This document shows, in pieces, positions 10,999 through 38,725 of a stretch of DNA of 64,000 bases. The notes beneath the pieces were generated by a model, which made no database searches, was not told where the DNA came from, and was given only the letters and a program-made list of their open reading frames with translations. Within the stretch, counting starts at the first letter, position 1. Each line of letters starts with the position of its first letter. Made by a program: the position numbers and the translations under genes. Source of the DNA: Nitrospira sp. (GTDB lineage Bacteria > Nitrospirota > Nitrospiria > Nitrospirales > Nitrospiraceae); contig JABMDL010000007.1 of assembly GCA_015903945.1 (NCBI GenBank), positions 11,653 through 75,652 on the forward strand, given 5' to 3'.

Positions 10999-12384
10999 TC
11001 ACCGACCGCGTTTACGCAGCGGCGATTCCTGCTCTTCGTGCTCGGACTCCTCGGAGACCGGATCGAGATACTTGGCCTGATCAACGCATCGTCCGGCTTC
11101 TGGACCTTCCCCCGAGGACTGGTCGAGATGAAAAAATCGGCGGGCTGCTTCGACAAATGCCGGCCCGTTCGACGAGTTGACTTCGCTTTTGAGCGTAACC
11201 ATCGTTCGATGAATCAATTTATTGACGATCGATGATGCCAGGTTTTCAACCAATTCCTTGTCCTGTTGGGAAAGGTGGCCGAGGCGGCCGAGCGCTTTAT
11301 CGACTTCCGCCCGCTTGATGTCATCGACACGGTTCCGCAAGGCTACGATCGTGGGGGTCACCTCGAGCGATTTCATCCATTCGATGATCGCCCCGACCTC
11401 TTCCACCACCATCCGCTCCGCCTTTTCCGCTTCCTGCAACCGCTCCGCGCGGTTTTGTTCCACACGATGCGTCAGATCGTCGATATCGAACAAGAAGGCG
11501 TTGTCCACATGCCGCACGGCTGGATCGATGTTCCGCGGCACCGAGATGTCGATCAAGAACATGGGGCGATTACCGCGTTTCTCGACCGCACGTTCCACAT
11601 CTTCCGCCCCGACGATATAGTGCGCGGCCCCTGTGGAAACGAGCACGATGTCCGCCGAGGCCATCTCGCTCTTGAACTGCTCAAATGGCACTGGGGTCCC
11701 ACCGAACTTGGCGGCCAGATCGACCGCATGCTGTGGGGTCCTCGTCGTAATGCGCACGTGCTGGACACCCTGCGCGATCAAGTGCCGTGCCGCGAGTTTT
11801 GCCATTTCACCGGCACCGACCAACAGGACGGTCTTCTCCTCCAGATTCGAAAAGATTTTCTTGGCCAGCTCCACGGCGGCGTAGCTCACGGACACAGCTG
11901 TTTCAGCGATCTTCGTCTCCGTCCGTACCCGCTTGGCCACCGAGATAGCTTTTTTGACCACTTTGTTCATGATCACGCCGGTCGTCTTGTGCCCCAGCGC
12001 CACCTCGAACGCGTCCTTCAATTGTCCAAGAATCTGCGACTCGCCGACGATCATCGAATCGAGGCTGGCGGCCACGCGGAACAAATGGGCGATCGCCCGA
12101 TCGCCGGTGTGCCAATAGAGATGCGGCGTGAGTTGCTCGGAGGACAGCGACAGATGCGTATCGGCCAGAAATTCTTGGATCCGTCCGTACCCGGCTTCGA
12201 CATCGTCAACGACGGAATACACTTCCACGCGATTGCAGGTGGAGAGCAACACCCCTTCCCTGATGCCGGGATAGGTGCAGAGTCTGCCGAGCGCCTCTCC
12301 CAAACGGCTCTCCGGGACGGCCAGCTTCTCGCGAATCTCGACCGGCGCCGTTTTATGGCTCAACCCAACGACAATCAGGTGCAT
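10999..12384 (-). CDS. hemA: Glutamyl-tRNA reductase
   Basis: VGLSHKTAPVEIRE, LSTCNRVE, SLDSMIVGESQILGQ and IDISVPRNIDP. Confidence 0.97.
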   Translation of the reverse strand: MHLIVVGLSHKTAPVEIREKLAVPESRLGEALGRLCTYPGIREGVLLSTCNRVEVYSVVDDVEAGYGRIQEFLADTHLSLSSEQLTPHLYWHTGDRAIAHLFRVAASLDSMIVGESQILGQLKDAFEVALGHKTTGVIMNKVVKKAISVAKRVRTETKIAETAVSVSYAAVELAKKIFSNLEEKTVLLVGAGEMAKLAARHLIAQGVQHVRITTRTPQHAVDLAAKFGGTPVPFEQFKSEMASADIVLVSTGAAHYIVGAEDVERAVEKRGNRPMFLIDISVPRNIDPAVRHVDNAFLFDIDDLTHRVEQNRAERLQEAEKAERMVVEEVGAIIEWMKSLEVTPTIVALRNRVDDIKRAEVDKALGRLGHLSQQDKELVENLASSIVNKLIHRTMVTLKSEVNSSNGPAFVEAARRFFHLDQSSGEGPEAGRCVDQAKYLDPVSEESEHEEQESPLRKRGR

Positions 12385-29975: not shown

Positions 29976-30097
29976 GGGTCTTCGCCTTCGAGGAATGCAG
30001 GTGATATCAGCATTCATTGCAACCCTCCAAAACGAATGAGGCGTTCAGGAACCCTGCCCCAAACGCCTCACCCCGACTCCATTCGCCCGGCCAAGAA

Positions 30098-30423
30098 TCA
30101 GCGATGCCGATTGCCTTGCCGGTCGTGTTTCTCGCGCGCAATGTTTCGAGAAGTCCGATCCTGAGCCGCGCTGATCCGAGCCCGTTCCCGTGCAGTGACG
30201 ACTCCGTCAGCCTTTGCCCTATTCTCCATACGATCGATGCGGTTTTGTTGCCGCTCCAGACGCTTGGCCTCTCGCGGATTCAATTGCCCGCTCTCAACTC
30301 CCTGGTCGATCCGCTGTTCTTGATTCATTTGCCGTTGATCGATGACAGGTGTGTCGGCTTGTGCGTATGCAGTTCCCCCGGCTGCCAAAAGTACGCTGCT
30401 CATTGCCAACACTTCTTCATCAT
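30098..30423 (-). CDS. Small exported charged protein (TPVIDQRQ family) whose signal peptide is split by a 1-nt frameshift or preceded by a coupled uORF
   Basis: A GGAGG RBS precedes ATG ATG AAG AAG TGT TGG CAA TGA (30423-30400). The main frame (VLAMSSVLLAAGGTAYAQADTPVIDQRQ..) is offset by 1 nt. Confidence 0.7.
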
Positions 30424-30614
30424 AGGGCCTCCTTAAATCTTGATGTTCTGCTTCCATCTTCGTAGCGGTTGGCAGACCCGGTGTTTCCACATAGCGGCAT
30501 CACTGTTTCCGCACTGTGGCAAATTTAACAGGCAGGTCGGGAATCGTCCATCGTTCGATCAGTTTTCATTGGTGAGACATGAGGGGCAGGTACGGGACGA
30601 ATCACCTGATCCGA

Positions 30615-31559
30615 CTAGTCTCGTCCGTGGCCGGAACGGTCTGGCCGCTCGGAACGCTCCACCCGTTCCGGCTTATCGGGCCGGTCGGCACGTTCCACCT
30701 TGTCGGGACGGTCGATCCGATCCTGACGGTCACTTCCCCCGGACCGGTCTTGTCGATCCGGCCGGTCGCGCCCGGAATCGCTCCGATCGCCACGGCTGCC
30801 TCGATCTCCACGATCGCCACGCTCACCCCGGTCACCGTCTCCGGACCCGCTCCGGTCCTCACGGAACAGCTTGTCGCTGCGTTCACCACGGCTCACCTGT
30901 TCGCGCAGCTGTTGCAGGCTGGCGCGGCCTTCTTCGAAATCCGACCCGCGCCGCTTCACTTCCCGGCCAAGGTCCAGCAGTTCCGAGGCGCGGTAGCCTT
31001 GGCGAATCCCCTCTCCTACCAAGGCGGTCCCTTCCTTGGAAGGAATGCGGCCTTCTTTCATGACCGCCAAACCCTTGGCGCCGGCCGCCAACTCTTCCTG
31101 CGTCGCTTTATGTCGGCCGTCTTGCGACAACCGGCTTAGCTCTCGCACCTCGTCCTTCGTGGCTCCTCGTGCCAAGGCTTCCGCCATCGTCTCCAGCGCG
31201 CGCTGCCGGTTCCCCTCCGTCATGCCACGTGCTTTGGCTTCTTCCAAGACTTCGTGTGCCGCTTCAAGCCGAGAGGTCATCTGCCGCAGCACCGGATCGA
31301 TGCGCTGGGGTTCGACCCCCTTCGCCAGACCTTCCTTCACCTTGTTCAGCAACGATTCGGTGGGAAGCCCCCTCTCTCCGGCCTTGCTGACTTGATCCAG
31401 CAAGGGATTGATCTCGCCCGCCGAGCGGCCTTGCGCTGAGCCGATCCGGTTGACCTCTTCCCGATCGTGAGCGGTGAGGGGTTCGGCTGACGCCGGACCA
31501 GCGGCGACCACCAAGACCCCGCTCAAAACCCACATGGTTAAATCGGTGTGCTTCGTCAT
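30615..31559 (-). CDS. Exported helical protein with C-terminal Asp/Arg-rich repeat tail
   Basis: Signal peptide (MWVLSGVLVVAAGPASA), helical core GLPTESLLNKVKEGLAKGV and a tail of DRP/DRG/ERx triplets. Confidence 0.8.
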   Translation of the reverse strand: MTKHTDLTMWVLSGVLVVAAGPASAEPLTAHDREEVNRIGSAQGRSAGEINPLLDQVSKAGERGLPTESLLNKVKEGLAKGVEPQRIDPVLRQMTSRLEAAHEVLEEAKARGMTEGNRQRALETMAEALARGATKDEVRELSRLSQDGRHKATQEELAAGAKGLAVMKEGRIPSKEGTALVGEGIRQGYRASELLDLGREVKRRGSDFEEGRASLQQLREQVSRGERSDKLFREDRSGSGDGDRGERGDRGDRGSRGDRSDSGRDRPDRQDRSGGSDRQDRIDRPDKVERADRPDKPERVERSERPDRSGHGRD

Positions 31560-31563
31560 TGCT

Positions 31564-31953
31564 CTACCGCACAATCACGACTCCGTTCGTCTGCCCGAAT
31601 CCATCAGTGACAAAATCCTCAGCCAGGGGCGGCGTGACCCACCGAACCCCATCAATCAGATACATGAAGGTGTATTCGCCTTCTTTCAGTGGAACGTCTA
31701 CGGTCCAGAGCGCCGAGCCGTTCACAATTTTCATGGGCGTCGCTCCTTTGGTCCAGCCGTTGAAGGACCCGACGAGAAAGACCTGCTTCGCCCCTGGCGC
31801 GAGCACCGTAAACCGCACACCTCCGGCCGTGGTCTTGGGCACATGCGGTGTGATCACCGGTGATTTGGCACAGGCTCCTAGGCCGCCTGACAGCATGAGC
31901 GCGATAAAGACCGTCCGGCAAAGGCGGCTGGGCCCCTTCAGTCTCATTCCCAT
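31564..31953 (-). CDS. Lipoprotein with glycogen-binding CBM48/AMPK-CBM-like domain
   Basis: Lipobox LGAC; VRFTV..AKQVFLVGSFNGW..WTVDVPLKEGEYTFMYLIDGVRW..DGFGQTNGV. Confidence 0.85.
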   Translation of the reverse strand: MGMRLKGPSRLCRTVFIALMLSGGLGACAKSPVITPHVPKTTAGGVRFTVLAPGAKQVFLVGSFNGWTKGATPMKIVNGSALWTVDVPLKEGEYTFMYLIDGVRWVTPPLAEDFVTDGFGQTNGVVIVR

Positions 31954-32006
31954 GAGCCAGAGAGTACTGAAGCATCAGGCCTGTTGCAAGGAAATCCGAG
32001 TGCACG

Positions 32007-32687
32007 CTAAATCTCCACATCGAGCACCGCATTCTGTGAGCCGAAGCCATCGCCGGTGCCTTCCGCGGCAAGGGGATCGGCGATCCACTGTTTGCCGTCG
32101 ATGACGAACATGTATTCATACCGGCCCGGCCTAAGTGGAAGTGTCACCGTCCACATCCCGCCGTCCGTCCGTTCCAGTTTGGTCTTGGCCGGATTCCATC
32201 CGTTAAAGTCCCCCGCCACCGAAACCGAACGCGCGTCGGGCTGCAAGAGCACCAGGCGGACGAACACGGTCGGCTCCAGCGTGGAGTTGAAGGAGGCCGT
32301 CTGCACCGGCGGAGCCGCCACCGGCACTTCCACGATCCGTTCCGGTCCGAATTGGATTAATCCCGCCACCGCAACCAGGGCAAGGCAGGCCGCCGCCATT
32401 GCCCCGGCAAGGTTCCATTCCAACGTTCGAGGCATCGTGAACAGCGCGCACAGGCGATCCCAGACGCCGGGAGTAACCGGAGCCGTCTGCGCTCTTACCC
32501 GGCGGAGGAACTCAGCTGAAGGAACGATCCTCGGCAACCGCGCCGCTTCCGCGGTTACCAACTCAAGATTGAGCCAGCTCCGGCGCAGCACAGGATCAGC
32601 ATCCACCGCCTTGAGAAACTCCGCCCGCTCCTCCGGCGTCAGCTCACCATCCAAGAATCGTTGCACGAACAGATCCTGATCAGTCAT
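32007..32687 (-). CDS. Membrane anti-sigma factor with periplasmic CBM48/AMPK-CBM-like domain
   Basis: N-terminal anti-sigma helix pair (QRFLDGELTPEERAEF), TM helix LAGAMAAACLALVAVAGLI and C-terminal VSVAGDFNGW..GRYEYMFVIDGKQW..DGFGSQNAV; directly downstream of the ECF sigma. Confidence 0.85.
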   Translation of the reverse strand: MTDQDLFVQRFLDGELTPEERAEFLKAVDADPVLRRSWLNLELVTAEAARLPRIVPSAEFLRRVRAQTAPVTPGVWDRLCALFTMPRTLEWNLAGAMAAACLALVAVAGLIQFGPERIVEVPVAAPPVQTASFNSTLEPTVFVRLVLLQPDARSVSVAGDFNGWNPAKTKLERTDGGMWTVTLPLRPGRYEYMFVIDGKQWIADPLAAEGTGDGFGSQNAVLDVEI

Positions 32688-32710
32688 TGATCCACCCTGC
32701 AGCTTCTGTC

Positions 32711-33292
32711 TTACTTGTTTGGGTCGAGCGCCGCCAGTTCGCGGCTGAGCTGCACTCTCCCCTTGTACACCCGCATTTTTAATGTGTCGCCGCTGACCCC
32801 AAGAATTTCTTCCATCTCCTCATAGCTCAATCCTTCGAGGTGTTTCAGTACGAATGCTTCCCGATACAGAGGCGGTAGCCGCTGAATCGCCTGCTCCAGC
32901 TCCTGAGCGATCTGCTGCTGCGCCAACAAATCTTCCGGCGTTCGCTCTTCCGCAACATGGAGATCGAGCTGGTCGTCTGCATCCACATCGTACTGCCCTT
33001 GCCCCGGCCGTTTGACCCGCAGCCAATCTTTGCACTTGTTGGAGGCGATCCGGTAGAGCCATGTCGAGAACTTCGAATCGGCTCGAAACGTCGGCAGCGC
33101 CTTGAACGCAGCCAGGAACGCCTCTTGAGCCAGGTCTTCCGCTTCAGCCTGGTTGCCGACCATCCGATAGGCCAAGTTGACGATCGTGGATGCATGTCGA
33201 TCGATCAACTGCCCGAATGCCTCCTGATCACGCGCAAGACTGCGCGCCACAAGTTGCGCATCAGTAGGATCGTCAGCCTGGTCCACCGGCAT
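32711..33292 (-). CDS. ECF RNA polymerase sigma factor
   Basis: Region 2 AEDLAQEAFLAAFK..FSTWLYRIASN and region 4 LSYEEMEEILG..TLKMRVYKGR; start MPVDQ at 33292. Confidence 0.93.
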   Translation of the reverse strand: MPVDQADDPTDAQLVARSLARDQEAFGQLIDRHASTIVNLAYRMVGNQAEAEDLAQEAFLAAFKALPTFRADSKFSTWLYRIASNKCKDWLRVKRPGQGQYDVDADDQLDLHVAEERTPEDLLAQQQIAQELEQAIQRLPPLYREAFVLKHLEGLSYEEMEEILGVSGDTLKMRVYKGRVQLSRELAALDPNK

Positions 33293-33355
33293 GGATCTGC
33301 TCCACTTACCCTGGCCCACTACCGATGGACCGTCTGCTTCGGCCTACTTGATTCA

Positions 33356-33384
33356 TTAGACGGATGGCGGGATGGAAGGTAAAC
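33356..33384 (-). promoter_or_regulatory. Putative ECF sigma promoter, copy 1
   Basis: Minus strand GTTTACCTT-N12-CCGTCTAA, 64 nt upstream of the ECF gene; identical arms and spacing at 37333-37361. Confidence 0.7.
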
Positions 33385-33408
33385 AGTCCTAACGGCGCTA
33401 AATAGGGC

Positions 33409-34365
33409 CTAGAATCTGTAGCTGGTGCCCAGCGAAACGACATAGTCCGGTGCGCCGTTTGAAACACCAACCGCCACACCGCCGTTGAACCGCCATTCCG
33501 CTGTAGCTCTGTAGTTGAACGCAAAATAGAAATCTCTGATGTTGACTCGGCCGACACGCGGCGCACGATATTCTTCGAAGTACCCGCTCACCAAGAGATC
33601 CTTCGTGAGATAATAGCCGGCGCCTACGTCATACCAATACTGATCACGCAGCACCAAGCCGTTTGGATTGCCGAGGAAGTTATAGCCTCCATCGAGGAAG
33701 GTAATCCACTTCTGGCCTAGCATTTTAGACAATTCCACCCCATAGCCGTGATCGAATTCACCGGTCCCCAGCCCCAGCTTTTCGTTCGCCGTCGGAAATT
33801 TCATACGGGCCGTGAGGGCAATAAGCGGAACGAAATCCCTTTCCTCGACGGCATAGTACCGTCCCCTCAGAACGATGTCGCCCAGACCGGCGGTCCTCAC
33901 CGTCTGACCGGCTGCGCGTGTGGTCGTTCCGCAAACACGGTCCTTTCCGCTGACATTGGACCCTTTGCCGCTGCAACCGCCGTCGTCAGCCCCTCCGCCG
34001 CCTCCCTGACCGCTGTTTCCTCCATCGTCATCGATCTGAGTCGCGTTTCCACCGACAAGCGTCGCGCGGCCATCGGTGCTGGCCGAGACGAAAGGAATCA
34101 CCAGCGTCACGTCTCCATCCCGAAAGAAACGGCGAAGCGACCATGGCGCATAGACGAACGTGCTGGTGGTGTCTGTGCCGAAATTCCCACTGCTGTAGCT
34201 GGGAGTAAACCCGATTTGCCAATTTTTTTCGGTCGAAGGCCTTTGCTCAGGCCCGATCTTCTCTTTTCCGTCAGCCGCCAGCGCTTGCGTTTGGAGTGTG
34301 GTGATAGACCATAATACAGCACCAATGACGATCCCACAGCGTTTCAAACAGATGTCCATGCTCAT
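33409..34365 (-). CDS. Outer-membrane beta-barrel / transporter-like protein
   Basis: Signal peptide, alternating amphipathic strands, GLGDIVLRGRY, GLGTGEFD and a C-terminal beta-signal ending YRF. Confidence 0.75.
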   Translation of the reverse strand: MSMDICLKRCGIVIGAVLWSITTLQTQALAADGKEKIGPEQRPSTEKNWQIGFTPSYSSGNFGTDTTSTFVYAPWSLRRFFRDGDVTLVIPFVSASTDGRATLVGGNATQIDDDGGNSGQGGGGGADDGGCSGKGSNVSGKDRVCGTTTRAAGQTVRTAGLGDIVLRGRYYAVEERDFVPLIALTARMKFPTANEKLGLGTGEFDHGYGVELSKMLGQKWITFLDGGYNFLGNPNGLVLRDQYWYDVGAGYYLTKDLLVSGYFEEYRAPRVGRVNIRDFYFAFNYRATAEWRFNGGVAVGVSNGAPDYVVSLGTSYRF

Positions 34366-34471
34366 ACTCTCGCTCCTCCTTCGTCTATACCTGATGCGAT
34401 GCGTCCTATGGAACGCAGGGCAAACTTAACGCCGAAAAGACTCCTATTCAACATGTTTGTCTAAGACGGAC

Positions 34472-34511
34472 AGAAGGCAGGATGCCGCCTGTATCAGGCA
34501 TCCTGCCTTCT
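34472..34511. terminator. 15-bp perfect inverted repeat (terminator or mRNA-stabilising hairpin)
   Basis: AGAAGGCAGGATGCC / GGCATCCTGCCTTCT with a 10-nt loop, 30 nt after the 34541-35293 stop. Confidence 0.65.
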
Positions 34512-34540
34512 CAAGTTACCCGCCGGTGAATTGCCGCTTA

Positions 34541-35293
34541 TCAGTTCCGTCCAGATCGTTCCGGTTTGTCCGGTCGCTCAGGCCGATCCGGCCGTTCAGG
34601 ACGATCGGGGCGGTCCGGTCGGTCCGGTCGGTCCGGCCTGTCGGGACGGTCGATTCTTTCCGGCCTGTTCGGTCGGTCCATTTGGACCTCGCGGGCATTC
34701 TCCCGCCCTTCGCGGCCATGTTCTCCGGCGACGCGATCGGCCCGGTCCAGCCCTCTCAGTTCACCGCCGGCATTCGATCGGAGATTTTCGCGGCGATCCT
34801 CACGGCGGTCCATCTGGCGATCCTCCCGCCGATCCTCACGCCGATCGAGCTGACGATCCTCTCTTCGATCTTCCCGTCGGTCAAGTTGCCGATCCTCACG
34901 ACGGTCCTCGCGGCGATCAAGCTGGCGATCTTCGCGCCGATCTTCCTGTCGGTCGAGCCTGCGATCTTCACGCCGGTCCGCCCTTCGATCTTCCTGCCGG
35001 ATGTCATCAGTGACCTGGGCCACGACCGTACGGTCATGGCCATGCCGTCCCCTATGGCCCTGCTCGCCGCCCTCGCGGCCGCTATTCACCGAGCCAGGTC
35101 CACTGTTCATTGAGCCACGTCCGCTATTCAGGGAGCCATGCCCGCTATTGAGCGAACCAGGGCCTCGATTGTCCATACGTACCGGCGGCTCTTCGGCAGG
35201 GCTGCTCATCTGCCCCATCGCAGGTGAGGTCAGCAACGACAGCCCGGCGATCGTCCCCAAGATGATTTCTTTCCAGCTAATACGATTCATCAT
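34541..35293 (-). CDS. Exported low-complexity protein with three repeat blocks
   Basis: Signal peptide, (GSxNSGx)x4, (RREDRREDRQLD)x~6, RGLDRADRVAGEHG and (DRP/ERP)x~12; GAGGAG RBS. Confidence 0.8.
   Translation of the reverse strand: MMNRISWKEIILGTIAGLSLLTSPAMGQMSSPAEEPPVRMDNRGPGSLNSGHGSLNSGRGSMNSGPGSVNSGREGGEQGHRGRHGHDRTVVAQVTDDIRQEDRRADRREDRRLDRQEDRREDRQLDRREDRREDRQLDRREDRREDRQLDRREDRREDRQMDRREDRRENLRSNAGGELRGLDRADRVAGEHGREGRENAREVQMDRPNRPERIDRPDRPDRPDRPDRPDRPERPDRPERPDKPERSGRN
34787..34999 (-). repeat. 36-bp coding tandem repeat (12-aa unit)
   Basis: About 6 units encoding RREDRREDRQLD, with synonymous codon differences between units. Confidence 0.85.
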
Positions 35294-35314
35294 TAATCTC
35301 CTCTTTGTCTTGAA

Positions 35315-35350
35315 GGTGACAGCGAGACCTTATTGTACCTCGCTGTCACC
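35315..35350. terminator. 12-bp perfect inverted repeat between DUF5666 gene and repeat-protein gene
   Basis: GGTGACAGCGAG / CTCGCTGTCACC with a 12-nt loop and no clear T tract. Confidence 0.5.
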
Positions 35351-35361
35351 GATGGGCCTAC

Positions 35362-36833
35362 TTAATCTTCCAACTCCGCCTCTTGCCAAGTCACTGTTGT
35401 ACCGCTCAGCTGCCCCTTAACCTTGACCACAGTCTCATTCTCCCTCACTGTGGCAAAAAAGGCTGCGCGTGTGATTGGAGAGTCATCAGTGCCTTCGAAC
35501 TGAACGCCAGTGGTATTCACAGTGACACCAAGAATCCTGAGGTTCGGATCCGCCTTCACCTGCACTTGGCCTTGGAGAACAACATCGTTATCAGGATCCT
35601 CGACCTTTATACGTGTAGCAATCACGGTGTTGCTCCCACTCAGCCGCCCTCGTACCCGCACATGCAAATTCTCTTGAAGTGGTCCATTATCTATCCTGGG
35701 TTGTTTATTCGTCATAACCGTCACACCTGGCAGTCCCTTGATAGTAAAAGAATCTGGGCCCAGAGCATCAATATCCCCTTCCAAACGCGCACTCTCTTTG
35801 AATTTCACATGTTTCGCGGTTAGGATACTGCCTGACAACCGTCCCTCAACTGACACCTTTGCACCATCAACAATATCGTCAATCGTTCCCTCCCGGAACT
35901 CAGTACTCGCGCTTGTCCGGACTTCCGTCGTTCCAACGAAGAACGTGGCAATTCCGTTTACCACAGATGCCTGTCGTACAAATCCTTCGACCTCAAATTC
36001 GTCCACGTCATTGCCGACACCCCGATTTTCCGGCTCGACTTTTGTCGCAAGCAGGGTGCCTTCAGTCTGTTGATTGGGCCCCGGCGTGAACAGTCCGCCT
36101 TTTACCTCAACGAACAAACCGTTCCAAGCATCGCCATTAGGGCCAGGACTTGGCATATCACTTAGACCAAGTTGTGGTGTGTTCGTGTAGTCCACTATGA
36201 GATTTCCAATTTTGAAGGTCTTCGGCGTAGCGCTATGGTTATGGCCGCTTACATACCCGCGCACCTCTGGTGTGATATTTACCAATTTCTTTTCGATAAA
36301 TGTTGCCTCGATGAGGCCCCCGGGCTGGACGTGACCGTTGACCTCGACATGATCAACCCCCACCTGCAATGTCGCAAGATCGCGATTCGTAATATTGTTG
36401 TCGATAATGGTCGTGCTATCGACAAGCACAGTTTGCCCCATGACTACAAGACTTGATTTGTCTAGAGCCACCGACTGCACCAATCCCTCGACCGCATCCT
36501 TTTGCCGCACTGAGGAGGCCGTATGCTTACTACCAATAAACGACCCATTGACCGTGACCACCATACCCTTCTTAATACCGCAGCTATCGTCCGATCCTTG
36601 AGCAGGCGGACCAATCGTGCATGACGTTTCACCGCTATCGTCCACCTTCACCAGCACATTGTTTGTTTCAAACCTCTTCCCAGTGACAACGTCCCGGAAG
36701 CCGAGGCCGAGCCACTGCCACTGGCTCCACCCGCACTGGCTGAGGCGGATGGCGATCCGTCACTGCACGCGCTCAATAATCCCACGAATCCGACCGCACC
36801 GAGTAGAGTGAACAGAACAGATGAATATCGCAT
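35362..36833 (-). pseudogene. Multi-DUF5666 lipoprotein, frameshifted near 36690
   Basis: The lipoprotein leader MRYSS..LLSAC and Gly/Ser linker ending SGT lie in one frame. VVTGKRFETNN..KKGMVVTVNG and the repeated DUF5666-like domains continue in another frame. Confidence 0.7.
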
Positions 36834-36861
36834 AGCTATACTCCTGTTGTTGAGTTGATGA

Positions 36862-37302
36862 TTAGGATTTCTGGTTTGGACGATCGTCCGGCCGAGCGCT
36901 AGCCGGCTGCGGCGCCTCGCCCAGGACATCCGCCGACCAGCTCACATGCGCGGGGCACCATTGCCAGACACCTAAGGTGATGATTCGCGTGAGCCCGGCG
37001 GGAATACAGGCTGTTCGGTTCATCGTCACCTCGCGGTTGATGACCCTGGTCGATGCCCCGCACCGGTTCAAATAGCGCTCGCCTGAGATCTTGTGCAGAT
37101 CAAAATGGGGGACGATAAAGGCCACGACCGGGACCGGCAGGACCGCAATGGACGAATCGTCCACCCACTCGCCGCCCGAACAATGCCCTTCCACTCCCGC
37201 TGTCCGTTTCACATCGTCACGCACGAGTGATGACGTACAGCCCGATAGCAGCAGCGCCATGGAAAGGATCAGCGCGCCAGTTTTGGTATGGATTCGTTTC
37301 AT
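36862..37302 (-). CDS. Cys-containing lipoprotein of unknown function
   Basis: Lipobox LSGC, GGAGGGG RBS and four further Cys; first gene after ECF promoter copy 2. Confidence 0.75.
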   Translation of the reverse strand: MKRIHTKTGALILSMALLLSGCTSSLVRDDVKRTAGVEGHCSGGEWVDDSSIAVLPVPVVAFIVPHFDLHKISGERYLNRCGASTRVINREVTMNRTACIPAGLTRIITLGVWQWCPAHVSWSADVLGEAPQPASARPDDRPNQKS

Positions 37303-37332
37303 GAGCCCCTCCTTCCAGCCTCGTATGCTGAG

Positions 37333-37361
37333 TTAGACGGAGAGGGCTCTAAAAGGTAAAC
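37333..37361 (-). promoter_or_regulatory. Putative ECF sigma promoter, copy 2
   Basis: Minus strand GTTTACCTT-N12-CCGTCTAA, 31 nt upstream of the 37302 start. Confidence 0.7.
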
Positions 37362-37415
37362 GGGGAAACGAGACCGAAAGAAATGGGGCCGGGAAACGGT
37401 GCGACGGGCAATCTC

Positions 37416-38093
37416 TTAGCGGATATCCTGGAAAAACATGCGGGGCAGGACCGGCAGGCGGTATTCCACGTGCAGAATAATCAACAAGACCCGCACGAAA
37501 CTCCGCCAGACACCCATTTTTAAGAACTTGCGCGCGTCAGTCACTACTGGAGGGCTGAGGAGTAGTGGGTTCGTCACCGTAAGCAGTTTCTCGCAGAAGG
37601 CCACATCTTCCAGGATCGGCTGGTCCGGGAAGCCGCCGAGTGACTCAAAGAATGACCGCCTGACAAACAAAGCCTGGTCCCCATAGACAATTCGACTGCG
37701 TGTACAACGAAAGTTATCCAAGCACGAGATCAGTTTCAGTCGCCAATCGTCGCCAGAAAACTGGTGCAGGAACCCTCCGGCTTGAACCGCATGATCCTCT
37801 TCCATGTTGTTTAATCGAAGCAGCGCCCCACCCGGCAACAGCGTATCGGCATGGAGAAAAAGCAACCACTCGCCGCTTGCCTGTGCTGCGCCAGCATTCA
37901 TCTGCGAGGCGCGGCCTTTTGTCGCCATCATGACGTGGACGCCGGCAAACGAGTAAGCGATATCGACAGTTCGATCGCTGCTGCCACCATCGACAACGAT
38001 CACTTCATACTCACCCGACTGCGTGAACAGCGCGTTGAGGGTGCCGGGCAGGGCCTTCTCTTCATTAAAGACCGGAACGATGACGCTGATCAT
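37416..38093 (-). CDS. GT2 glycosyltransferase (TIGR04283-like, rSAM/selenodomain-associated)
   Basis: ISVIVPVFNEE, VVDGGSSDRT, GRASQMNAGA, LFLHADT, YGDQALFV and EDV. Confidence 0.88.
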   Translation of the reverse strand: MISVIVPVFNEEKALPGTLNALFTQSGEYEVIVVDGGSSDRTVDIAYSFAGVHVMMATKGRASQMNAGAAQASGEWLLFLHADTLLPGGALLRLNNMEEDHAVQAGGFLHQFSGDDWRLKLISCLDNFRCTRSRIVYGDQALFVRRSFFESLGGFPDQPILEDVAFCEKLLTVTNPLLLSPPVVTDARKFLKMGVWRSFVRVLLIILHVEYRLPVLPRMFFQDIR

Positions 38094-38725
38094 GCCGAGC
38101 ACCACACCGGCAAGAACGTCCGCACATCGTGAGCCCACGCCGTGGCATCTTCATCGATACTGTCAAGCAGGTCGCCGAGCGCGAGGACCATGGCGTCGGT
38201 CAAGCCGAGGTATTGCTGCGTCCGTTGCCTGAGATCTTCCTCATCGGTTTTGCCCAGCTTGATCGCGCCCCCGATTTGCCGGCGGCCGAAACCATGGTGC
38301 GCTTCTTCCTGCTTGAGCAGGATGCGGCGAAGCGGTCCGAAGGGTGCGGCCCGTTTGACCAACCCCTGCTCAATCCGGGTGAGGATGGCTTCACCCAAAC
38401 CTTCCAGGACGACTTGCTCGGCAAGGAATGTCTCCATCAGATCGCGCCGAGCCAGCGCATCGTCAATAATCCTGCGATACGCTTCCAGGGCAGGAAGGAA
38501 CGGGACATCACAGAGGTGTTTCGGCGCCAGCCAGACAATGGCCCCCTGAAAGACCCGTGCATGCATCGCTTCTTGTTTGGCCTGGCTCAGAAGAAAATGC
38601 CGCGTCCCAGAATCTTCCGCCAAAGCCGCCTGGGCCTTCGCGCAGTCATGGGCCATCCGCTCGCCGTGCTCCAGAAACGTGAGCAACCGGGCCATTGGAA
38701 CCTTCTCGTCAGGACGCACCAGCAT
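38090..38725 (-). CDS. Ferritin-like di-iron four-helix protein
   Basis: E..QEAMH..E..QEEAH ExxH pattern; start MLVRPDE at 38725. Confidence 0.7.
   Translation of the reverse strand: MLVRPDEKVPMARLLTFLEHGERMAHDCAKAQAALAEDSGTRHFLLSQAKQEAMHARVFQGAIVWLAPKHLCDVPFLPALEAYRRIIDDALARRDLMETFLAEQVVLEGLGEAILTRIEQGLVKRAAPFGPLRRILLKQEEAHHGFGRRQIGGAIKLGKTDEEDLRQRTQQYLGLTDAMVLALGDLLDSIDEDATAWAHDVRTFLPVWCSA

Follow-up and report, generated by a model that had tools for sequence, protein, structure and literature searches.

Extracytoplasmic function (ECF) sigma factors of the RpoE/AlgU family recognize promoters of the form GGAACTT-N16-TCnaA, in which the -10 element contains GTC followed by an A-rich tail, and the promoter read by SigW is TGAAAC-N16-CGTA. 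In Neisseria meningitidis, sigma-E promoters combine the -35 element GTMAGBWTT, a spacer of 12-13 nucleotides (nt), and the -10 element CGTCTAAH (PMC2893595). The RpoE1/RpoE3-dependent promoter of SMc01022 in Sinorhizobium meliloti, which was mapped by its 5' end, has the -10 sequence CGTCTAA (PMC6180224). Our literature search found no paper on ECF regulation in Nitrospira. Here, we analyze a stretch of 64,000 nt from a Nitrospira sp. assembly (GCA_015903945.1, contig JABMDL010000007.1, forward-strand positions 11,653 to 75,652), hereafter the window, in which a bipartite motif with the core GTTTAC-N16-CGTCTAA stands ahead of two neighboring gene units, one of them headed by an ECF sigma factor gene.

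An earlier note on this DNA proposed that the motif is the promoter of that sigma factor. Our results support this proposal: GTTTAC-N16-CGTCTAA is very probably the cognate promoter of the ECF sigma encoded at 32711-33292. The support comes from conservation at orthologous places, co-occurrence with the sigma gene, unlinked sites ahead of envelope genes, and the fact that this is the only sigma gene in the genome to carry the motif. The geometry, with a -35 element ending in AC, 16 nt, and a -10 element starting with CGTC, is of the ECF type. The two sites in the window are as follows:

37333-37361, minus strand: P1, predicted promoter; -35 GTTTAC at 37356-37361, -10 CGTCTAA at 37333-37339, spacer 16 nt
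33356-33384, minus strand: P2, predicted promoter; -35 GTTTAC at 33379-33384, -10 CGTCTAA at 33356-33362, spacer 16 nt

In its longer form, GTTTACCTT-N12-CCGTCTAA, the motif matched exactly twice in the window, at P1 and P2, with 0 mismatches, against a chance expectation of 0; 100 dinucleotide-preserving shuffles yielded no match at all. The window scan returned no further sites at two or fewer mismatches, and P1 and P2 are also the only exact copies in the entire assembly (2.95 Mb, 116 contigs, 93.7% complete), which agrees with the earlier claim that there is no other full copy. Sites with three mismatches numbered 5 genome-wide versus 10 in a reversed-pattern control and were thus not in excess. 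As had been described, the arms and the spacing are identical and the spacers unlike (CCATCCCGCCAT vs. TTAGAGCCCTCT). The flanks are unrelated as well, and therefore the two copies do not stem from a recent duplication. The identity of all 17 arm bases is a property of the pair in the window; across species, 13 of the 17 are kept, namely GTTTAC and CGTCTAA, and the extra CTT and the leading C of the arms are specific to this lineage.

Gene coordinates agree with the claim that both copies are intergenic and correctly oriented ahead of the first gene of each unit. P1 lies 54 nt past the stop codon of a GT2 glycosyltransferase gene and 30 nt ahead of the ATG of a lipoprotein gene, to which it points; its transcription start is predicted about 5-8 nt downstream of 37333. 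P2 begins 24 nt past the stop codon of an outer-membrane protein (OMP) gene and ends 63 nt ahead of the conserved sigma ATG, in sense orientation. A search of window positions 30000-38500 against Rfam gave no family match at E<=0.1.

To follow the motif across genomes, we compared about 11 kb around each anti-sigma orthologue in same-genus loci. Such an orthologue is present in 21 of the 36 reference genomes of the genus, and the 24 genomes taken from other families of the order all lack it; identity to the same-genus proteins is 76-84% for sigma and 45-57% for the DUF5666 protein. Every locus that extends far enough upstream has [GA]TT[TG]AC-N16-CGTCTAA at both orthologous places, and the core itself is conserved at the P1 place in 20/20 and at the P2 place in 21/22 same-genus loci. 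Conservation upstream of orthologues, whose lack was named beforehand as grounds for refutation, is thus present, and it links the unit of lipoprotein, DUF5666 protein, repeat protein, and OMP to the sigma-CBM48 unit, as had been claimed. By chance, the exact 13-base core would be expected in a given 150-nt region with a probability of about 2e-6. When the sites are aligned by the motif, GTTTAC and CGTCTAA show little or no variation, a T is also favored two bases ahead of CGTCTAA, and sequence changes are free in the 16-nt spacer and in the flank upstream. The GT2 gene upstream of P1 is present, distant, or absent depending on the genome, and the distance from the motif to the downstream gene is kept. 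Because the upstream neighbor differs between genomes, the motif travels with its downstream gene.

The locus occurs in about 45 named Nitrospira records (one genome per species), including N. moscoviensis and Ca. N. defluvii, and most of them have the core at both places. The two N. moscoviensis sites fall at about 954898-954926 and 958087-958115 of CP011801.1 (L116 2134-2162 and 5323-5351). Among 98 distinct sites, nearly all have a spacer of 16 nt and a few have 17 nt. One genome (G002) is an exception, with the site GTTTTC-N16-CGTCTCA and a sigma reading frame that seems broken; on its contig (G002:C125; L011, oriented 348-954), the sigma matches q1-142 and q166-200 fall in different frames. 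Here, sigma and promoter may be decaying together, or the assembly may be in error.

The motif also extends beyond the phylum. In Vicinamibacteria (Acidobacteriota), a single GTTTAC-N16/17-CGTCT[AT]A heads an operon of OMP, sigma, anti-sigma, CBM48, and 319-amino-acid (aa) protein genes, the sigma being about 50-57% and the anti-sigma 43-51% identical. Relatives at 33-39% sigma identity (Gemmatimonadota, Atribacterota, and Krumholzibacteria) have no such motif. The motif therefore follows the sigma/anti-sigma family across two phyla, and the layout with two promoters is a Nitrospira elaboration.

Scanning this and related genomes showed that the core tracks the sigma factor and sits at both orthologous places. 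Over 61 related genomes, the exact core is present in 22/22 with the sigma/anti-sigma pair and in 1/39 without it, and the reversed-pattern control gave 2 matches in total. The best sigma matches in the latter group are paralogues of 31-38% identity, so absence of the anti-sigma goes together with absence of the sigma. Unlinked core sites occur in 15/22 sigma-positive and 1/39 sigma-negative genomes (Fisher p=3e-8; p=2e-4 within the genus alone). Eight of these sites (seven in sigma-positive genomes, one in the sigma-negative genome G012) lie 32-36 nt ahead of a paralogue of the P1 lipoprotein (129-130 aa), and six lie 47 nt ahead of a gene for a 199-aa OMP_b-brl protein. Thus, 13 unlinked sites in sigma-positive genomes stand 32-47 nt before one or the other of these genes; two more are P1-type sites ahead of DUF5666 genes on separate contigs, and another three are ambiguous.

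Some of our observations weigh against this reading. P1 and P2 are themselves inside the sigma locus, so part of the co-occurrence is trivial and the unlinked sites are the independent evidence. A minor peculiarity is the -35 element, which has TTTAC in place of the usual GGAAC/GAAAC. The N. defluvii lineage combines an exact P1 with a degenerate P2 (GTGTAC/GTTTAC-N17-CGTCAGA, TGTCTCA). Direct autoregulation at P2 thus does not extend to all lineages, and in this one the sigma probably relies mostly on read-through from P1. Finally, G012, whose assembly is 94% complete, has a perfect site before the lipoprotein paralogue; either the sigma locus is missing from the assembly, or another sigma is able to use the site.

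These points bear on the alternatives, which even taken jointly we regard as unlikely. The motif might be read by another ECF sigma, a paralogue or one that cross-talks, instead of the adjacent one. This genome has about 15 Sigma70_r4_2 open reading frames (ORFs), and the site kept by G012 in the absence of sigma/anti-sigma orthologues is the single finding that speaks for such a sigma, tempered by the incompleteness of that assembly. However, none of the other sigma genes has the motif upstream, the unlinked sites track the presence of the adjacent sigma, and the motif accompanies the sigma/anti-sigma pair wherever this occurs, including a second phylum; we therefore give this alternative little probability. 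Reading the conserved blocks as an operator for a DNA-binding regulator is quite improbable. Conservation by itself cannot separate a promoter from an operator, and the extra inverted repeat CGTCAAG...CTTGACG upstream of the third sites of other genomes implies that additional regulators act. Yet the two half-sites have no symmetry, forming no palindrome and no direct repeat; they stand a constant 16 (rarely 17) nt apart with a spacer of free sequence between them; they are always oriented to the downstream gene, 30-65 nt from its start codon; the -10 block equals a documented ECF -10; and sigma is the sole regulator gene conserved in the locus.

The sites could also be housekeeping sigma-70 promoters, with P2 read as TTTACC-N17-TCTAAT. 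TTTACC matches TTGACA at 4/6 and TCTAAT matches TATAAT at 5/6 positions across a 17-nt spacer, and the T after CGTCTAA is invariant at P2 (21/21). Against this, the second hexamer has a C where the -11 A is essential, the final T is missing from P1, where the hexamer is TCTAAC, and a sigma-70-type promoter scan called neither site; the invariant CG before TCTAA and the leading G of GTTTAC would go unexplained, and the motif is absent from Nitrospira genomes without the ECF sigma. We hold this explanation to be very improbable. A chance match, or a functionless remnant of a recent local duplication, has almost no probability as the origin of the two copies: short motifs can recur, and nothing more speaks for it, whereas the shuffles gave no match, spacers and flanks are unrelated, and both copies are conserved across about 45 species. 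The shuffles and the conservation of both copies rule this candidate out. The cognate promoter of the adjacent ECF sigma is thus the reading that we carry forward.

The genes of the two units are all on the minus strand, in the order GT2, P1, lipoprotein, DUF5666, 250-aa repeat protein, OMP, P2, sigma, anti-sigma, CBM48, and 319-aa protein:

37416-38138, minus strand: GT2 glycosyltransferase, the gene upstream of P1
36862-37302, minus strand: lipoprotein, 146 aa, first gene of the P1 unit; lipobox LLSGC, four further invariant cysteines, no known family
35362-36657, minus strand: DUF5666-repeat protein, 431 aa; Pfam PF18914, E=3.7e-31, three stretches
34541-35293, minus strand: exported repeat protein, 250 aa, no family match
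33409-34365, minus strand: OMP, outer-membrane beta-barrel of the Phenol_MetA_deg family, last gene of the P1 unit; Pfam PF13557, E=7e-8
32711-33292, minus strand: ECF sigma factor, 193 aa from ATG 33292; Sigma70_r2 4.8e-23, Sigma70_r4_2 6.4e-15
32007-32687, minus strand: putative anti-sigma, 226 aa; CBM_48 5.5e-10, one hydrophobic span at about residues 91-113
31564-31953, minus strand: stand-alone CBM48 protein, 129 aa; CBM_48 6.4e-10
30615-31574, minus strand: 319-aa protein (p319), no known family, last conserved gene of the sigma unit, found downstream in Nitrospira and Vicinamibacteria

The sigma is an ECF sigma by its content, with regions 2 and 4 and a TIGR02937 sigma70-ECF score of 124 bits against a cut-off of 42.9 bits. 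Its closest solved structures are B. subtilis SigW, P. aeruginosa AlgU, E. coli RpoE, and M. tuberculosis SigE. The NCBIfam equivalog scores (SigW, 146 vs. a 209-bit cut-off; RpoE, 132 vs. 236) are far below the cut-offs, and therefore it is a relative of those families and not a member. The main text of the Casas-Pastor 2021 ECF classification makes no mention of Nitrospira or CBM48. Adjacency of sigma and anti-sigma is syntenic in all relatives. In the anti-sigma protein, the N-terminal anti-sigma domain lacks a zinc motif, and a CBM48/AMPK1_CBM domain forms the C-terminal part; matches to the anti-sigma domain are weak (zf-HC2, 0.006; NF052375 'antisigma', 1.5e-6), both below cut-off.

Based on this layout, we propose a mechanism in which the membrane anti-sigma, predicted to combine a cytoplasmic anti-sigma domain, one transmembrane span, and a periplasmic CBM48 domain, would free the sigma upon an inducing signal, presumably by proteolysis. 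Sigma-RNA polymerase would then bind GTTTAC through region 4, and region 2 would bind and melt CGTCTAA, so that sigma-dependent transcription would start a few nt downstream of each copy. P1 would drive the lipoprotein, DUF5666 protein, repeat protein, and OMP genes. A terminator scan between OMP and sigma found none, so transcription from P1 probably reads on into the sigma operon; the two units are therefore not insulated. P2 would serve the genes for sigma, anti-sigma, the second CBM48 protein, and p319, giving positive autoregulation and, at the same time, new synthesis of the inhibitor. In N. moscoviensis, a 3.8-kb Logan contig (SRR8285210_140) found through its sigma protein runs unbroken from OMP to p319, which would be a hint of co-transcription if the run is RNA. 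Between the repeat-protein gene and OMP, this contig starts with a perfect GC-rich palindrome, CGGCGTTGCGCGCGCAACGCCG (L160 1-23), which could be a hairpin or attenuator inside the unit or simply a break in the assembly. Exact-protein look-ups returned no record of the lipoprotein in the window and, for the N. moscoviensis DUF5666 protein, the genome record alone.

Sigma synthesis may be controlled at a second level. The longest sigma ORF begins at GTG 33319; however, GGAG-N8-ATGCC is kept in all relatives, which argues for ATG 33292 as the true start. This places a leader ahead of the coding sequence:

33293-33349, minus strand: conserved 5' leader of the sigma mRNA, about 56 nt, from the alignment across Nitrospira

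Leader positions 33320-33325 (UCGGUA) can pair with 33286-33291 (UGCCGG), the start-codon region (start codon and 4 nt more), in a 6-base-pair helix. In 21 sequences, 96.8% of the alignment cells are paired, versus 19-63% in slid controls, and double-sided changes number 9 cells versus 2.5 in shuffles, with none of 500 shuffles reaching as high. Within the coding sequence, covariation with the leader involves codon 2 (third base) and codon 3 (first base). Altogether, this suggests that the leader helix gates translation of the sigma.

To delimit the regulon in this genome, we built a position weight matrix from the 98 distinct sites and scanned the entire assembly. P2 scored 42.3 bits, the best in the genome, followed by P1 with 36.6 bits, and the next site had 19.0 bits. 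The latter (C80:49875-49903, plus strand, outside the window) has the exact core GTTTAC-N16-CGTCTAA and is flanked by a YqgE/AlgH-like ORF and an aminotransferase-like ORF that stand 900 nt apart. There is no ORF within 280 nt of it and no Rfam match at E<=0.1, and it is not conserved in other genomes; it may be a chance match or the promoter of an unannotated small RNA or peptide. The site at C11:35446-35474 (plus strand, 18.2 bits) reads GTTGAC-N16-CGTCCAA and is 34 nt ahead of the ribosome-binding site of a gene for a 131-aa exported protein. Both of its variant blocks are seen at orthologous P2 sites elsewhere, and the only homologue of the 131-aa protein (G006, L163) has GTTTAC-N16-CGTCATA about 55 nt before its start. 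Because the site is conserved before the sole homologue of the downstream gene, it is probably a weak third member of the regulon. Neither the lipoprotein paralogue nor the 199-aa OMP is found in this genome. The two-operon regulon of the earlier note is thus a slight undercount, as the regulon is probably not strictly limited to two promoters.

A broader reading takes the locus as the complete mini-regulon of an uncharacterised Nitrospirota/Acidobacteriota ECF system, an envelope circuit that would sense glycans and be controlled at the transcriptional as well as the translational level. Here, the anti-sigma with its periplasmic, glucan-binding-type CBM48 may control the cysteine-rich lipoprotein, the DUF5666 protein, the mixed-charge repeat protein, and the OMP channel, and the leader helix that occludes the start codon may also gate sigma synthesis, so that this would not be a generic stress sigma. 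Taken as a whole, this reading is tentative, and we consider it doubtful.

Several further observations concern the genes and sites themselves. The AlphaFold2 model of the lipoprotein, built from a 17-sequence alignment, has a mean predicted local distance difference test score of 37 and is unusable. Paralogues of this lipoprotein in 8 other genomes each have their own promoter copy, and their promoters (L056, L057, L058, L061, L063, L066, L068, and L071) carry the inverted repeat CGTCAAG-N(~20-27)-CTTGACG directly upstream of the -35 element, 5-40 nt ahead of GTTTAC, which suggests that a second regulator acts there. The last ~45 aa of the 250-aa repeat protein (34541-34680) and of the 319-aa protein (30615-30760) are 54% identical by tblastn; the likeness recurs in most related loci, and the two units thus share a C-terminal module. 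Finally, a 155-aa ORF in another frame (31652-32119, minus strand) covers the 3' end of the anti-sigma gene and the 5' end of the CBM48 gene. Its apparent conservation (30-54%) is of the kind that the conserved coding DNA in these overlaps would produce, and the ORF is therefore unlikely to be a gene.

As key nitrifiers, Nitrospira are of wide importance but difficult to manipulate genetically, and their transcriptional wiring is almost wholly uncharted. Thirteen invariant bases, a 16-nt spacer, and a linked sigma/anti-sigma pair make the regulon computable for dozens of species, and a defined promoter offers a ready reporter design to find the signal of the CBM48 anti-sigma. The promoter also links four families of unknown function (the lipoprotein, DUF5666, the repeat protein, and the 319-aa protein) to one envelope response. 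As the circuit is of the textbook autoregulated ECF kind, its value is practical and not a surprise.

Among described systems, N. meningitidis sigma-E (NMB2144) has, as proposed for the Nitrospira locus, a small ECF regulon that includes its own operon, and the same -10 sequence CGTCTAA (PMC2893595); its arrangement of a ~9-nt -35 block, a 12-13-nt spacer, and a -10 fits the 9+12+8 layout in which the motif was first described. The -35 elements differ, with GTMAGBWTT there and GTTTAC(CTT) in Nitrospira. The Neisseria anti-sigma is a small cytoplasmic protein of the zinc type, whereas that of Nitrospira is predicted to be a membrane protein with a periplasmic CBM48, and the targets are msrAB in Neisseria and would be envelope lipoprotein and OMP genes in Nitrospira. 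The S. meliloti SMc01022 promoter shares an identical -10; its -35 is of the GAAT type, and the sigma group and targets are unrelated.

E. coli RpoE and P. aeruginosa AlgU are among the closest solved structures (1or7, 1e-27; 6in7, 8e-29). With these, the Nitrospira system shares a membrane anti-sigma gene directly downstream and what would be positive autoregulation and outer-membrane or envelope targets. It differs in the -35 element (GGAAC there, TTTAC in Nitrospira), in the periplasmic domain of the anti-sigma, which is CBM48 and not RseA/MucA-like, and in a locus without RseB/DegS-type partners and with a tiny regulon. B. subtilis SigW is the best match among solved structures (5wuq, 1e-32) and in NCBIfam (NF007223, 146 bits; equivalog cut-off 209), and the 16-nt spacing and CGT-type -10 are alike, whereas its anti-sigma (RsiW), regulon, and Gram-positive host are not. 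Altogether, the type of control is already known, and the Nitrospira system would be a new, well-delimited case of an autoregulated ECF promoter with a mini-regulon.

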